Source: a virus
Strand: one strand, 5' to 3'
DNA length: 7,938 nt
Virus record (IMG/VR): IMGVR_UViG_3300022690_001911
Location: 1-7,938 of that record
Part shown: piece by piece, positions 3,285 to 7,938 of the stretch
How the letters are laid out: every line of letters starts with the position of its first letter
Numbering within the stretch: the first letter of the stretch is position 1
Program-made: the position numbers and the translations under genes
Notes under the pieces: generated by a model
What the model was told of the DNA's origin: nothing
Databases searched by the model: none
What the model saw: the letters and a program-made list of their open reading frames with translations, nothing else

Positions 3285-3313
3285 AATGTAAATCACCTGA
3301 CACAATGTGTCAA
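3285..3313 (-). promoter_or_regulatory. Sigma70-type promoter for the structural operon: TTGACA-N17-TACATT
   Basis: On the minus strand the -35 box TTGACA is at 3313-3308, the spacer is exactly 17 nt, and the -10 box TACATT is at 3290-3285. This lies about 55 nt upstream of ATG 3231. Confidence 0.6.
3298..3312. promoter_or_regulatory. Perfect 7-1-7 palindrome TGACACA-A-TGTGTCA (operator candidate) overlapping the -35 box and spacer
   Basis: Read directly from the sequence. A related palindrome, CAGTG-ACA-CACTG, lies at 3261-3273 and shares the GTGACACA core. Confidence 0.6.
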
Positions 3314-3562: not shown

Positions 3563-3617
3563 AAATATTACGTACAGACGATTAAAAAAAAGGATGTTGT
3601 TATAGGGATATAAAATT

Positions 3618-3639
3618 GAGCAGGTTATAAAATCTGCTC
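3618..3639. terminator. Hairpin GAGCAG-N10-CTGCTC between the convergent RHH and rep genes (weak bidirectional terminator candidate)
   Basis: Perfect 6-bp stem. The minus-strand side is followed by AAUUUUAUAU; the plus-strand side has a poor U-tract. Confidence 0.35.
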
Positions 3640-3643
3640 ATTT

Positions 3644-3737
3644 AGTACCAATTTCGACGTGCCGGCGCAACGCCAGGTTTCAAAATCAGTACCTATTTTT
3701 GTTATCGATGTCGCCCAGGGAACAGCAAATCAGTACC
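3644..3737. repeat. Iteron cluster A: AGTACC at 3644-3649; a 34-nt element TGCCGG-N7-CCAGGT-N8-CAGTACC at 3660-3693; CCCAGGGA-N10-CAGTACC at 3714-3737
   Basis: Read directly from the sequence. The same motifs recur in cluster B (6866-7036). The cluster abuts the rep stop codon. Confidence 0.8.
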
Positions 3738-5353
3738 TAATCACCTGCATTTTTTGTCATTTGCTCATATTTATTGACATAATTCGGCTGGTAAAATCGA
3801 CTTTGCGACAACATAAGATCAGCCTCCGCATTAATTTTTTCAGAACCTAGAGTGCAAGGTTTTTTATAATAAATTTTGCCGTTCATATTGATTTGATCAT
3901 CCAAATCATCATCGTTATTAGCATCGCCACGCGACAGAAAATCAATATAAAATTGTTCAAAGGTATAACGACCATTATCATCATCAACAAAGCCATAACA
4001 ATACCGCGCAACAGCATCAATGCCGCCGTTGGTTATGATATCGAGCAATAATGGGCGCTGCTTACGAGCTTGAATAATTTTCCATTCGTAGGGCAATAAC
4101 AAGCATTGTAAAATGGCTTTGTCTTCTTCTTGCTGGATGATTTCCGCGTCGGTCAATTCTTTAGTGTTTGCCATGCCTAAGTCTTTTCGCAAGTTACGCG
4201 ACCACTTAATCATTGTCTTACCATGCATTGCCCTGGCATATTGCAAAAATAACAACCAATTAAATTTCCTGATCTCTTTGGTTTCGCCCTCCTCAATTAA
4301 CGACAATATTTCCCACGGCGTGATCGACTTAGATCGACCATTTTTTTTATTTCCCTTGGTCATTTCGTCGGCCATGTCCCATGTGATTTTTTTACCCGTT
4401 TTAGTCTCTAAAATTTCATCATCAGAACCGTATTTATTGATATATTCAGAGGCTTGAGAGCCATTTTGTAAGTCCATACCAAACAAATTTGGCTTTTTTA
4501 ATCCCGCGTTTAAGCAGTGACCCTGCCAGCGCTCAAGAATCCTGTCCCATTCGGGATCTTGATTTTTTTGCAAACGACCAACCAAGGTTCTTTTCGTTAC
4601 GGGTAACGGTTTTTTACTGAAAACAATAATATGAAAATGCGGATGCCAACCATTATCGCCGTATCGAACTTCAAGCGTTCTAATGTTGCCGACAATGCCA
4701 TAACGTTTCTTGAATCGTGTAGCTACATTGTTGCGCCAAAATTCGCGCAAAGCCGCATTCATTTTATCGACCAAAACTTCAATTTTATCAGTAACATAAT
4801 GAGGCGCGGTAAACGTCAGCAACTGAATATTCAACCCTTTTTCTTTTGCTAAATCAAAGCCTTCACGCATTTCGTTAGCCTTACGTTCTGCCAACTTATC
4901 AGAGCAAATCGGGCACGTATGGCCATTGCCGCAATTCATCAGGCCGCCGTAAAAATATTTGCCGTTGGTTTTTGATTTTAAAATCTCAGTTGTGGTCGAC
5001 AAACGGAATCCGGTACAACTACAAGTACGGTGATGAATATCGTAACCTTTCACGTTTTTTCGAGTCGTTTCACTGTAAGAATAGAGGGTTTTTTTCGCTA
5101 TTTCATGAAGCTCGAAACGAATACGACGAGTTCGTGAAATTGATTCGGACTCAGTGAGCGCGCGCACTTCAAGCAGTTCGCCAGTCTCTTTATCGAGAAA
5201 ATTCCTGACCAATTTTAGAGGGGGGGTGGTGCGTAAGTCCGTAGCATTACCAAGTGCGCCCGTCTTCGACGGCTGCGCTGCGGTGCCGTTGCTCCTCGCT
5301 AGCCTCTCTTGAGGGCTTGCTATTGTTTTTAATAGTTTGCTATCATTGCTCAT
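3737..5353 (-). CDS. Rolling-circle replication initiator, HUH endonuclease superfamily (pC194/Rep_1-like, RstA/gII analogue), 538 aa
   Basis: Motif 1 LLTFT. HUH motif GWHPHFHIIVF (His codons at 4631-4645). Candidate catalytic Tyr in SEYINKYGSDDE (about 4430-4453). Upstream Cys/His cluster HHRTCSC...NCGNGHTCPIC, which looks like a zinc ribbon. This is the largest ORF and sits upstream of the structural module, as in inoviruses. Confidence 0.85.
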   Translation of the reverse strand: MSNDSKLLKTIASPQERLARSNGTAAQPSKTGALGNATDLRTTPPLKLVRNFLDKETGELLEVRALTESESISRTRRIRFELHEIAKKTLYSYSETTRKNVKGYDIHHRTCSCTGFRLSTTTEILKSKTNGKYFYGGLMNCGNGHTCPICSDKLAERKANEMREGFDLAKEKGLNIQLLTFTAPHYVTDKIEVLVDKMNAALREFWRNNVATRFKKRYGIVGNIRTLEVRYGDNGWHPHFHIIVFSKKPLPVTKRTLVGRLQKNQDPEWDRILERWQGHCLNAGLKKPNLFGMDLQNGSQASEYINKYGSDDEILETKTGKKITWDMADEMTKGNKKNGRSKSITPWEILSLIEEGETKEIRKFNWLLFLQYARAMHGKTMIKWSRNLRKDLGMANTKELTDAEIIQQEEDKAILQCLLLPYEWKIIQARKQRPLLLDIITNGGIDAVARYCYGFVDDDNGRYTFEQFYIDFLSRGDANNDDDLDDQINMNGKIYYKKPCTLGSEKINAEADLMLSQSRFYQPNYVNKYEQMTKNAGD

Positions 5354-5420: not shown

Positions 5421-5450
5421 GGGCTATCGGTGGTTTACGTCGATAGTCCC
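5421..5450. other. Imperfect 10-bp inverted repeat (GGGCTATCGG ... CGATAGTCCC; 9/10 pairs, 10-nt loop) about 70 nt upstream of the rep start
   Basis: Read directly from the sequence. There is no U-tract, so it is not a typical terminator. Confidence 0.5.
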
Positions 5451-5466
5451 GAAATCTTTCTAGATA

Positions 5467-5887: not shown

Positions 5888-6484
5888 CTAGTTCGCATTC
5901 TTCTTTTTAGTTACGAGTAACGCTTTAAGCCCGATAGCTTCAACTTCACGATCAAGAAACATACCGTCATCATTTTGATATTTCACATCGGCAAACGCCG
6001 CATATGCCAACGCGACAATCGAATTCAAATCAAGCCCCGCCTCAAGCATCATCCTATAACGCCCACCTTCCAGACTCTCTAGCGACTTAGAAACATGAAC
6101 GATACCAGTTTCCTTTTTCTTTAAACGTGCCTTTTTGGCCCTCTCAGCGCCAGACATGGCATTACCTGAAGAAGGTCGACCACGCTTTTTAGGCATATTA
6201 TCAAGTTGTAGCTGAATTTCTTCCTTAACAACAGGCTCAGGCTCGATGCTCACTTTAAAATCATCATCTTCGTTAATGTATGCCACAGCAGCACGCTTAA
6301 GACCAGCCAACGAACCATCACACTTTAATGTCACGCCAGACTGAATATTATCAATATCCCCCTCCTGCTTAATCAGGAACGTTTCAGCGTCTTGATTCCA
6401 CTGAATAAACGCAAGCCTATTGTAGCCCTCTTTAATTTCCAGCGTGTTAGTACCTAACTTTCTGACATTTCGTGTAGTGATCAT
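5888..6484 (-). CDS. Hypothetical 198-aa protein with a central AT-hook-like basic segment (PKKRGRPSSGNAMSGAERAKKARLKKK); putative DNA-binding regulator
   Basis: The preferred start is ATG 6484, which has an AAGGAG SD (6499-6494) and lies downstream of a TATAAT promoter. The track's TTG 6541 and the ATG at 6514 both fall inside that promoter. The GRP-x(n)-MS-x-AER-basic pattern recalls small plasmid and phage regulatory proteins; this is from memory and not verified. Confidence 0.7.
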   Translation of the reverse strand: MITTRNVRKLGTNTLEIKEGYNRLAFIQWNQDAETFLIKQEGDIDNIQSGVTLKCDGSLAGLKRAAVAYINEDDDFKVSIEPEPVVKEEIQLQLDNMPKKRGRPSSGNAMSGAERAKKARLKKKETGIVHVSKSLESLEGGRYRMMLEAGLDLNSIVALAYAAFADVKYQNDDGMFLDREVEAIGLKALLVTKKKNAN

Positions 6485-6512: not shown

Positions 6513-6541
6513 ATTATATCGTTACGCGTAACAATAAACAA
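6513..6541 (-). promoter_or_regulatory. Sigma70-type promoter TTGTTT-N17-TATAAT with the palindrome GTTACGCGTAAC in its spacer
   Basis: On the minus strand the -35 box TTGTTT is at 6541-6536, the spacer is 17 nt, and a perfect -10 box TATAAT is at 6518-6513. It probably drives the 198-aa ORF, and possibly the small ORFs and rep as well. Confidence 0.6.
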
Positions 6542-6639
6542 GCATTTTCGTTACGAATAACAATAAATCATCAACTTTTTTCGTTATGCGTATCATTAAT
6601 TAACTTTTCCAACCGAGCATTTGCGCTGTCACGCGTAAC
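6521..6639. repeat. Array of four related about-18-nt repeats with a 12-bp palindromic core: GTTACGCGTAAC (6521-6532), GTTACGAATAAC (6550-6561), GTTATGCGTATC (6583-6594), GTCACGCGTAAC (6628-6639), each followed by an A/T-rich AATAAA-like tail
   Basis: Read directly from the sequence. Start-to-start spacing is 29, 33 and 45 bp. The array spans the promoter of the 198-aa ORF and the 3' end of the 89-aa ORF. Confidence 0.85.
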
Positions 6640-6840
6640 AATTAAATCACTGACTTCTGCAATAACCTGCTCTAACTCCTCAATCCTAGCCTCCGCATTG
6701 TCAGCCCTAAGCTCATTAGCCTGACAGTTCGTTATGGCCCATAACGCCGCCTTGCTGGACGTACCAACCTCAGCGCGGTACTTTAATTCATTAATTAAAT
6801 TCAAAAACTCTTTAGTGTCATTATCAATTTTTACCAGCAT
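6571..6840 (-). CDS. Hypothetical 89-aa protein, predicted coiled coil
   Basis: AAGGAA SD 5 nt upstream of ATG 6840. A heptad-like acidic and basic helix (ELRADNAEARIEELEQVIAEVSDLI). First gene after the main intergenic region. Confidence 0.65.
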   Translation of the reverse strand: MLVKIDNDTKEFLNLINELKYRAEVGTSSKAALWAITNCQANELRADNAEARIEELEQVIAEVSDLIVTRDSANARLEKLINDTHNEKS

Positions 6841-6865: not shown

Positions 6866-7036
6866 ATGGTACTATTTTAGCAAATAACTGATCGATGTAA
6901 AGGCTTTTTAGTACCATTTTTAGCTTTTATTTTCCCCAGGGACTTTAAAATCAGTACCAAAACAAACCCAGTGAATTTAACTTTGGTACTAATTTTAAGT
7001 TGCCGGTCGCGCGCCAGGTGCGTTAAACAGTACCAA
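6866..7036. promoter_or_regulatory. Main intergenic region / iteron cluster B (candidate origin, packaging signal or attP region)
   Basis: Inverted pair ATGGTACTA (6866-6874) / TAGTACCAT (6909-6917). CCCCAGGGA-N10-CAGTACC at 6934-6958. Inverted pair TTGGTACT (6983-6990) / AGTACCAA (7029-7036), which encloses the second copy of the 34-nt element (7001-7034). This is the largest non-coding gap after the assembly gene, like the Ff intergenic region. Confidence 0.7.
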
Positions 7037-7938
7037 TTACTCAAACCCGGACGTAGCCTGGGGCGCAGAATTAGTACTGTAAAAAGCGGCCTTAGTCTTG
7101 TTTAACCCACAAAAAACAGACTGGATTTGATCCTGATAAACCAAATCAACCAGACACGCCGTTTTGCGTAACACCTTAAATCCCATCAGGACCAAGTCAT
7201 CACTGTTAAAATGATACTCAGCCTGATTAATGGTTCCCGCAAACATATAAATGGACTGATTACGACCAGTGCTTAACACGGCCCCAGTGACCCAAATATC
7301 ATCGAAACGGCTTAAGTAAGGCATAGCTGACACATCAAACATTAAACCGCCGCCATCGCCATCAACCACCGCACGCTGAACGCGATCACCTTTATCACCA
7401 CTATTAGAATTAACACCCGAAACAGCACTTTCACCAGTAGCCAATGGAGCGCCTTTTTCAGCCGTGGCCACGTCCTTATTTTTACCCATCGAAACAGCGT
7501 TAGGTGCGTCTGCAAAAACAAGCAAATAAGTCCATATAGCGACCACAAACAATAACATGCCTGCAATTTTAGGGTCCTTAAAGATGCTTGTTCCCGCAAT
7601 CGAGTCGCTAACTTCCCCTGTTTTAGTCGATTCGTATAACTCAAAAATGTAGCTGGGTATTTTCTTATTTTTGACTGATATTTGATTAGAAGCAGAGGTG
7701 CCGTTATTTTCTTTATCATGAGTAATTTCCTTGTATCTGCCCTTGATCCCAATCACGGCCATGTTGACGTGACGATAGGCCATTTCCGTGTTTTCTTTCA
7801 GTACCGGATGGACTTTTTTAATGTTTGTGGTTGTTAATGAAAAGTCCCAATTGTGGTGCCGATGCATATCAAACGCCGCGTAAATATCCTCGGGCCTGTC
7901 GTCTTTTTCGGCTGCTTCGGCTCCATTTGGGTAATCAA
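7037..7938 (-). CDS. zot: Zot / pI-like assembly ATPase, 3' (C-terminal) part; the frame stays open to the window end, and 7795-7938 duplicates 1-144
   Basis: Same frame as 1-466 across the junction. Contains the single TM segment MLLFVVAIWTYLLVFA followed by a C-terminal, presumably periplasmic, domain, as in pI/Zot. Stop TAA at 7039-7037. The track's Met at 7867 is internal (residue 132 of 407). Confidence 0.9.
   Translation of the reverse strand, partial: DYPNGAEAAEKDDRPEDIYAAFDMHRHHNWDFSLTTTNIKKVHPVLKENTEMAYRHVNMAVIGIKGRYKEITHDKENNGTSASNQISVKNKKIPSYIFELYESTKTGEVSDSIAGTSIFKDPKIAGMLLFVVAIWTYLLVFADAPNAVSMGKNKDVATAEKGAPLATGESAVSGVNSNSGDKGDRVQRAVVDGDGGGLMFDVSAMPYLSRFDDIWVTGAVLSTGRNQSIYMFAGTINQAEYHFNSDDLVLMGFKVLRKTACLVDLVYQDQIQSVFCGLNKTKAAFYSTNSAPQATSGFE
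7795..7938. repeat. Terminal redundancy, copy 2 (identical to 1-144)
   Basis: Same as copy 1. The offset between copies is 7,794 bp, which is the genome length. Confidence 0.95.

Follow-up and report, generated by a model that had tools for sequence, protein, structure and literature searches.

How filamentous phages control chronic infection and copy number has been worked out in only a handful of models (Ff, CTXphi and Pf). Among the closest described arrangements to the one treated here are those of plasmids that encode small ribbon-helix-helix (RHH) proteins: CopG binds one contiguous pseudo-symmetric element and spreads locally, and omega acts at several loci of one replicon. In pMV158, CopG is co-transcribed with repB and represses the promoter Pcr of both genes (PMC2724298). 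Here, we consider a stretch of viral DNA of 7,938 nucleotides (nt) from IMG/VR record IMGVR_UViG_3300022690_001911, hereafter the window, and in particular the element at 3644-3737, termed cluster A, which lies in the 174-nt gap between the convergent genes rep and orf62. As bases 1-144 are repeated at 7795-7938, the window corresponds to a circular genome of 7,794 nt; the phage is a small filamentous phage (inovirus), and its clade is uncultured and probably marine. Similar to CopG/Pcr of pMV158, a small protein of predicted RHH type, orf89, is encoded upstream of an HUH initiator gene on the same strand, with a putative operator overlapping the promoter into the regulator gene (PMC2724298). 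We regard it as reasonably probable, judging from comparative sequence analysis, that cluster A serves orf89 as an auxiliary operator cassette within a CopG-like control module of the replication genes, and not as an origin.

The original prediction, made from the sequence alone, had singled out cluster A for its repeated motif, and its coordinates are all correct: AGTACC is present at 3644, 3688 and 3732, and a 34-nt element, TGCCGG-CGCAACG-CCAGGT-TTCAAAAT-CAGTACC, at 3660-3693. Equally, six distinct copies of CAGTACC (5, 944, 3687, 3731, 6952 and 7028, all on the + strand) compare with 0.40 expected, a count matched in none of 200 shuffles, substantiating the proposed excess over chance; a further match at 7799 is the copy at 5 read again through the 144-nt terminal overlap. 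The shorter AGTACY is found 15 times versus 3.7 expected. The claim of a single orientation holds for the 7-mer and is limited to it, because a second group of sites, cluster B, has inverted copies (6868, 6985) and a palindromic AGTACT (7073). Similarly, a second unit, CCCAGGGA-N-CAGTACC, exists with a spacer of 9 nt rather than the 10 given, and the last motif, described as ending exactly at the rep stop codon, adjoins it with an overlap of 1 nt.

The strongest feature is the phasing, which had been overlooked. The core-to-core spacing is 44 and 44 nt in cluster A, and 42, 43, 32, 44 and 44 nt in cluster B. Arrays of at least three RGTACY sites placed 41-45 nt apart occur three times in the genome, and not once in 3,000 genomes simulated with a first-order Markov model. 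From 53 sites in 11 phages, the consensus is an imperfect palindrome of 12-14 bp, tttTG-GTAC-YAaa, of which CAGTACC is the variant of this phage, read on the opposite strand.

Approximately 130 related contigs, gathered via Rep, orf89 and DNA patterns and referred to by L numbers below, place these sites in context. In every phage with a close orf89 homologue, three or four RGTACY sites, 41-45 nt apart, directly precede that gene or the operon containing it, and in most cases a CCWGG separates site 2 from site 3 (L001, L002 with two genomes, L003, L004, L036, L113, L115, L116, L118, L126, L128, L129 and L135). On the coding strand of the gene, a sigma70-like promoter is enclosed by the two proximal sites, and its register is constant in the window and at least seven relatives (L001, L002, L003, L036, L115, L118 and L128). 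The register is GGTACT-N8-TTTACA-N16-TAAAAT-AGTACC in the window, TTGATA-N16-TATAAT-GGTACT in L003 and L115, and TTTACT-N16-TAAAAT-GGTACC in L001, with L118, L036 and L128 being similar. In cluster B, site 1 adjoins the -10 element, and 8 nt separate the -35 hexamer from site 2 on its upstream side. Because of this fixed register, one site falls over the likely transcription start and the next just upstream of -35. Thus, palindromic sites that overlap the promoter driving the regulator itself, a trait of RHH modules, are present in the window and at least seven relatives, and the bracketing of the promoter by the cluster B sites is, on this comparison, the behavior of a putative operator. The part of the original prediction that called for a generic protein-binding site is hence well supported, since at least 14 related contigs retain the sites together with their phasing and palindromic form. 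One of these contigs, L002 (14,310 nt), carries two phage genomes one after the other, which are related without being identical and both of which have an array, orf89, the cassette, rep and orf62; the contig is either a tandem double prophage or replicative form, or else a chimeric assembly.

The 34-nt element is itself a part of a larger, 50-nt unit, RGTACY-N12-CCGG-N6/7-CCWGG-N11/12-RGTACY, which we call the H unit. Sixteen instances were recovered in 12 genomes, three of them in the window (3644-3693, 6985-7034 and 7029-7078); the 44-nt spacing of the sites is kept in 16 of 16, and a common polarity relative to transcription in 15 of 16. The last of the window units overlaps the 3' end of zot. 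A simpler type of unit, with CCWGG only, is found in cluster A, between cluster B sites 2 and 3, and in relatives. The H-unit cores (3662-3665, 3673-3677, 7003-7018 and 7047-7061, together with the units of relatives) are mostly RCCGGY plus CCWGG. RCCGGY, CCWGG, GTAC and GGTACC are classic targets of restriction-modification systems or orphan 5-methylcytosine methyltransferases.

The core of the H unit had been proposed to fold into a hairpin in single-stranded DNA (ssDNA). CCGGCG-caa-CGCC(A)GG is indeed the predicted minimum-free-energy fold of the cluster A copy, at -4.8 kcal/mol; its z scores relative to shuffles are -0.15 on the + strand and -0.12 on the - strand. The cluster B copy takes a different fold (z > 0), and homologous elements in L036, L001 and L113 have next to no structure (-0.6 to -1.9 kcal/mol, z >= 0). 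Hence the hairpin is not sustained: with both strands of both copies and three homologues folded, none beats its shuffles. In the 16 homologous units, the CCGG and CCWGG of the supposed stem are invariant, the loop is free in sequence and of 6 or 7 nt, and the bulge is A or T. An invariant stem with a free loop leaves no covariation, and indicates recognition of sequence rather than of structure. An HUH substrate hairpin was consequently rejected, as folds of the window copies and of the relatives gave no stable, conserved stem-loop.

A structured element does however lie next to cluster A. The bidirectional terminator-like hairpin at 3617-3641 reaches, as RNA, -13.2 kcal/mol (z = -4.55) on the + strand and -9.5 kcal/mol (z = -2.71) on the - strand, and rep-sense transcripts would traverse cluster A first and then this hairpin. 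Within 3644-3737 itself, no intrinsic terminator (G+C-rich hairpin plus U-run) was found. A search of Rfam returned no match. Separately, inverted GTACC sites in cluster B can pair in ssDNA, which yields a 17-bp stem between 6945-6961 and 6982-6998 and another of 12 bp within 7027-7080. On either strand this region folds more stably than its shuffles (z = -2.3 and -2.4), and the hairpins are absent in relatives. As part of the main intergenic region, they might represent a minus-strand origin or a signal for packaging.

Relatives show that cluster A is a conserved, movable secondary cassette, as far as comparison of the contigs can tell. An H-unit cassette occupies the same rep/orf62 gap in L034, where the first site adjoins the rep stop codon, in L036, where the first site is inside the last codons of rep, and in L135, which has the two sites of the H unit only, about 35 nt past the rep stop. 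In L001, L002, L126, L128 and L129 the cassette is instead located between orf89 and rep, and in L118 it precedes a small gene upstream of rep. The cassette of L128, a CCWGG unit plus an H unit with 44/44 spacing, has the identical composition to cluster A. In L113 and L116, H units are found inside the primary array. Cassette-less relatives have short rep/orf62 gaps (40-91 nt) with at most a terminator hairpin.

Next, the distribution of the arrays points to a candidate binder. Among 118 non-redundant loci (596 kb), phased arrays are present at 11 of the 14 with an orf89-family gene and at 0 of the 104 without (Fisher p = 4e-13, with lineages that are not independent). All three orf89-positive loci that lack arrays belong to a distant orf89 subfamily. 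Seven additional contigs behave in the same manner: L126, L128, L129 and L135 have both orf89 and arrays, and L132-L134, close Rep_1 relatives, have neither. The family comprises about 47 clusters; homologues required a profile, since searches with the single sequence matched orf89 alone. Its signature begins with an MLxKF strand at the N-terminus (K4 invariant), continues with helix A and includes a G-x-S-S-K turn that resembles GLSKSA of CopG and in which S29 and K30 never vary. In the AlphaFold (AF2) model (pLDDT 92.4), residues 1-9 are extended, followed by helices 10-23 and 28-88. Hence orf89 is predicted from signature and model to be an RHH protein with a long C-terminal helix, and, given its co-occurrence with the arrays, it may be the binder of the GTAC sites. 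The distant subfamily (MLIKF..DDP.FEQAIQLLKLKYRTGAxSKA) also appears as a second, oppositely oriented paralogue in L113 (3150-3506, - strand) and L116 (295-672, - strand). In L119-L121 it is the sole copy, with a conserved GTCCAAyTCTrAA..GTATCGGACAT element after the gene; in L121, a contig of Colwellia, an integrase is found alongside.

In the mechanism that we propose, the functional units would be double-stranded imperfect palindromes exactly 44 bp apart with CCGG/CCWGG cores between them, and because 44 bp amounts to about four helical turns, the sites would be roughly on one face of the helix. Dimers of orf89 would bind the GTAC palindromes, its second helix, a rod of some 60 residues, could join dimers, and four-turn spacing and long helix together might yield cooperative higher-order complexes. 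The cluster B promoter would read into orf89, and then into orf217 and rep on the same strand. As the cluster B sites cover the start and the -35 flank, their occupation should silence this promoter; an operator over its own promoter thus predicts negative feedback on the replication module, in a CopG-like manner, for orf89 as well as the replication genes downstream. Cluster A would contribute a further three sites, located 3.2 kb downstream where rep ends and shortly before the terminator. There it could loop to cluster B, raising the local concentration or occupancy of the regulator, or serve, when bound, as a roadblock or insulator at the convergent rep/orf62 junction. What the data establish are the motif statistics, the phasing, the conserved sites, units and promoter register, the co-occurrence with orf89 rather than with Rep or orf62, and the instability of the hairpin; we infer that orf89 is the binder, that its binding represses, and that cluster A loops or forms a roadblock.

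As proposed, the module would work like RHH repressor-operator systems with a distal set of operators. CopG differs in having 45 residues without the long C-terminal helix, and its operator from the discrete palindromes 44 bp apart, the CCGG/CCWGG cores and the distal cassette seen here, where binding by orf89 is a prediction. Omega of pSM19035 and ParR-parC of R1 are alike in that RHH dimers bind cooperatively to arrays of short repeats around promoters (PMC5016525). Their repeats are contiguous (7-bp heptads and 11-bp iterons, respectively), in contrast to the four-turn spacing here, and ParR partners with the ParM motor, whereas no partner NTPase is found among the 10 proteins scanned. The ~43-44-bp period and the short palindromic sites have a parallel in sopC of the F plasmid, with 12 tandem 43-bp repeats that each hold a palindromic SopB site; SopB is however a ParB-type helix-turn-helix (HTH) protein in partition, and the sopC units are near-identical, as opposed to the short cores that alone are conserved here. 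A second cluster of the same sites kilobases away from the regulated promoter, the role suggested for cluster A, is familiar from lambda OL-OR, coliphage 186 FL/FR and lac O2/O3. The repressors of lambda, 186 and lac are HTH proteins for which looping is demonstrated, whereas in the phage of the window looping is a deduction. Finally, origin iterons, the gpII repeats of Ff and HUH nick hairpins are similarly repeated motifs of the inovirus intergenic region or beside rep, but true origin repeats co-vary with the initiator, whereas sites of the present type occur with both Rep_1 and Phage_CRI and are absent from close Rep_1 relatives. What is distinctive relative to RHH modules is the palindromes four turns apart, the composite H unit, the variable position of the cassette and the rod-like C-terminal helix. 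We found no description of the motif or the module in the searchable literature or in the cultured-phage genomes searched.

Several points weigh against an auxiliary operator cassette bound by orf89. A Foldseek search with the orf89 model gave no significant match (best E = 0.54); the top matches, all non-significant, are mostly RHH or RHH-like (MazE, NikR, ParD and a TCP domain), and a Pfam scan of orf89 gave no match. As the fold search was non-significant, the RHH assignment rests on the sequence signature and the topology. Co-occurrence among related phages may partly reflect co-inheritance of a module of promoter, sites and gene, and a host factor or another protein of the module could be the binder. 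The CCGG/CCWGG cores are unlike GTAC, and a single RHH specificity leaves them unexplained. A separate secondary cassette is absent in L003, L004, L113, L115 and L116, and cluster A is accessory since these phages manage without one. Looping and roadblock fit the data alike, and control of rep from the cluster B promoter is uncertain, as rep may have its own promoter and leader hairpin.

A bolder version of the same proposal, which we hold to be unlikely, is that a portable cassette, consisting of an RHH-plus-rod protein and a 44-bp-phased composite operator, has moved between Rep_1 and Phage_CRI inoviruses, and that in this phage its two arrays lie on either side of the whole replication module, where they complete a repression loop of 3.2 kb in a replicon of 7.8 kb. 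If so, the RCCGGY/CCWGG cores could render the switch sensitive to host methylation, these being classic targets of host cytosine methyltransferases.

Another option, improbable in our judgment, is that orf89 and the array form an accessory nucleoprotein complex, instead of or besides repression. The complex could enhance an origin, form a minus-strand origin or a structure for packaging, or act like a centromere in the maintenance of an episome. Parallels are offered by integration host factor at domain B of the Ff origin and by RHH accessory proteins of the relaxosome, for instance TraY, as well as by ParR/parC for the centromere, where the parC iterons of R1 likewise flank a promoter. The location also fits, the arrays being in the main intergenic region after zot, the usual inovirus place of origins and packaging signal, as do the long ssDNA hairpins of the window (6945-6998 and 7027-7080, z about -2.4). 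RHH proteins are moreover established adaptors in relaxosomes and centromeres (PMC5675868, PMC5016525). Nevertheless, these hairpins are absent in relatives, whose sites are mostly direct or palindromic, and the fixed promoter register is most simply understood as transcription control. Neither ParA nor ParM, nor any other partition NTPase, was detected among the 10 proteins scanned, which comprise all but the small remaining open reading frames (ORFs) of this genome of just 7.8 kb.

It is quite improbable, too, that the sites are regulatory yet bound by a host factor or by a second phage protein recognizing CCGG/CCWGG, with orf89 merely linked. The presence of three different short palindromes (GTAC, RCCGGY and CCWGG) in one unit would be accounted for in this manner, and the co-occurrence is phylogenetically structured. 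Conversely, no other protein tracks the arrays, and the distant orf89 subfamily is without arrays, as expected if orf89 sets the specificity. The two proteins put forward in the original prediction, its RHH protein (orf62) and a 198-aa protein (orf217), do not qualify: arrays occur without orf62 in L113 and L116, and orf62 without arrays in L006, L007, L035 and L039, so its distribution is decoupled from the arrays, and orf217 is without homologue among the 29 closest relatives searched. Rep is likewise decoupled. The resemblance of orf62 to RHH proteins was noted by eye from its sequence alone, and Pfam and PHROG scans give no support. A palindrome of its own, TGACACAATGTGTCA, is found at 3298-3312 in the divergent orf62/g5 promoter region, conserved in L034 (2083) and distinct from the GTAC system; it is likely the operator of the orf62 protein.

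That Rep recognizes cluster A, whether as the origin of the plus strand, as a further origin or a terminator in rolling-circle replication, or as a nick site with a hairpin 8 nt away, is very improbable. Such a reading draws on the position of the element next to rep, which four Rep_1 phages share (L034, L036, L135 and the phage of the window), on a polarity versus the packaged strand that is constant in 15 of 16 units, and on the resemblance of hairpin, fixed spacer and conserved heptamer to substrates of HUH relaxases and transposases. It is largely refuted by distribution, as judged from the contigs compared. Arrays and H units are also found with an unrelated initiator, Phage_CRI (L113, L115 and L116, with the CCGG-N6/7-CCWGG unit in L113 and L116), and arrays are missing in more than 20 contigs with the same Rep_1 family at 36-54 % identity; the orf89 family additionally occurs with a Rep_trans initiator (L120). 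The hairpin is neither stable nor conserved, the spacer being free and the bulge A or T, and there are 12 palindromic sites per genome. The proposals of a Rep origin, nick site, replication terminator or recombination site are accordingly not supported, given this distribution, the unstable hairpin, the lack of CTTGATA in the clusters and the fixed promoter register. For recombination, XerCD/dif attP sites are 28 bp long, with two 11-bp arms and a 6-8-bp centre, resemble the host dif and are found at prophage borders; we take the CAGTACC motif, by eye, to bear no likeness to dif.

Several specific origin candidates were discarded as well. Iterons of a Rep_1 origin fail since the repeats do not co-vary with the initiator. 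CTTGATA, the Rep_1 nick consensus (CTTG|ATA type), has a single copy, at 6199 inside orf217, which is at chance level, and TATCAAG in the L003 array corresponds to a promoter -35 hexamer. ATCGATG(T), common to clusters A and B, overlaps the cluster B -35 hexamer and spacer and is not kept in relatives. CTGACGAACGCAAC, present in the first unit of several cassettes, is confined to cassettes and not present in array-less Rep_1 phages, and 9-mers shared across Rep_1 genomes reflect only conserved Rep codons (TWDM), the window differing at synonymous positions.

Regulation by cluster A of an antisense promoter or counter-transcript through rep is highly improbable: a sigma70-like TTGTCA-18-CATAAT on the + strand (3754-3783, starting 17 nt after site 3; 10/12 match with TG) and TTGATA-16-TAAATT at the equivalent position in L034 would fit, but none is present in L036 or beside the L118 cassette, making it a trait of 2/3 post-rep cassettes only, promoter-like matches are no more numerous than in shuffles, and cassettes between orf89 and rep cannot act so.

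Aggregated, the motif finding is real, and its class should shift from origin or hairpin to operator array. The module, comprising a protein family, an operator consensus, the 44-bp architecture and a movable secondary cassette, is a conserved and apparently undescribed control module. It predicts binding of orf89 to TTTGGTACYAAA sites, autorepression, and looping or roadblock. It also serves as a warning that repeated motifs near rep should not be annotated as origins by default. Table 1 lists the features of the window.

Table 1. Features of the two clusters and surrounding genes, in window coordinates.
Feature	Position	Strand	Remarks
Terminator-like hairpin, bidirectional, GAGCAGG-loop-CTGCTC	3617-3641		between orf62 and cluster A
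Cluster A site 1, AGTACC (rep-sense aaattgGTACtaaat)	3644-3649		left end of H unit; 3 nt from terminator hairpin; homologous site in L034, L036, L135
H-unit core: CCGG 3662-3665, N7, CCAGG 3673-3677	3662-3677		previously read as a hairpin; both blocks conserved, spacer sequence free
Cluster A site 2, AGTACC	3688-3693		44 nt from site 1
CCAGG core of second cluster A unit (CCWGG-only type)	3715-3719		inside CCCAGGG 3714-3720
Cluster A site 3, AGTACC	3732-3737		44 nt from site 2; 1-nt overlap with rep stop codon 3737-3739
Cluster B primary operator array (putative)	6868-6958		sites 6868-6873 (GGTACT), 6910-6915, 6953-6958; CCAGG 6936-6940 between sites 2 and 3
Sigma70-like promoter TTTACA-16-TAAAAT, TG-extended -10	6874-6901	-	toward orf89
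Two further cluster B H units	6985-7078		first 6985-7034 (CCGG 7003-7006, CCAGG 7014-7018); second 7029-7078 (CCGG 7047-7050, CCTGG 7057-7061)
Zot/gI	across circle junction, end at 7037	-	
orf89, 89 aa	6840-6571	-	predicted RHH N-terminus + 60-residue helix; candidate binder of GTAC sites
orf217, 217 aa	6541-5888	-	198-aa protein of the original prediction
Two small ORFs		-	
rep, 538 aa, Rep_1 (PF01446) HUH initiator	3737-5353	-	stop codon adjoins cluster A
g5-like ORF, major coat (Phage_Coat_B), g3-like protein, g6-like protein		-	further genes
orf62, 62 aa	3374-3562	+	convergent on rep

The phage has no described close relatives among cultured phages, which show zero DNA similarity to the window; in protein searches against them, the best Rep match was 30 % and orf89 had none. 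In species-representative genomes, searched for host or prophage context, the relatives' Rep is at most 34 % identical, and no integrated relative was recovered.

Upstream of rep, a stem-loop is shared by Rep_1 phages with or without orf89 (5422-5451 in the window, with a promoter-like site at 5492-5464). It is found in L001 (about 925-955), L003, L035, L039, L118, L128 and L132-L135, about 80 nt upstream. In the relatives it reads GCAAAAAAA-GGGTTGAACG-loop-CATTCAACCC-TTTGTCTTTTTGC after a TATATT -10 element, with compensatory changes in 5/10 pairs; the window copy has diverged in sequence yet keeps its ability to fold (z = -2.2 and -2.9). The stem-loop is a candidate for either an attenuator in the rep leader or the real double-strand origin.

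A second motif system is formed by a 12-bp palindrome, GTTACGNGTAAC, with six distinct sites (at most one mismatch) as compared to 0.09 expected, at 6521-6645, 2673, 4596 and 5910. Including a weaker copy at 6583, the cluster has four sites, 29-45 nt apart, across the orf89 3' end and the orf217 start. These sites resemble the operators of a further regulator, which may be orf217.

Inside the g3-like gene, tandem 18-nt repeats (1123-1224) specify a linker of the form (P-G-T-D-P-D)n, as is typical for the adsorption proteins of inoviruses. Lastly, a 26-nt sequence, TTAGCAAATTAGCTTGCGATTTTTGG, is absent from the window and identical in inoviruses of three unrelated initiator families: Rep_1 (L001 735, L002 5723 and 12752, L126 5537, L129 4898), Phage_CRI (L115 6656) and Rep_trans (L120 5047), with variants in L007, L119 and L128. 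Its conservation suggests either that it matches a stretch of host DNA (attP/attB) or that these phages have a cis signal in common, for example one for packaging or for initiation of the minus strand.

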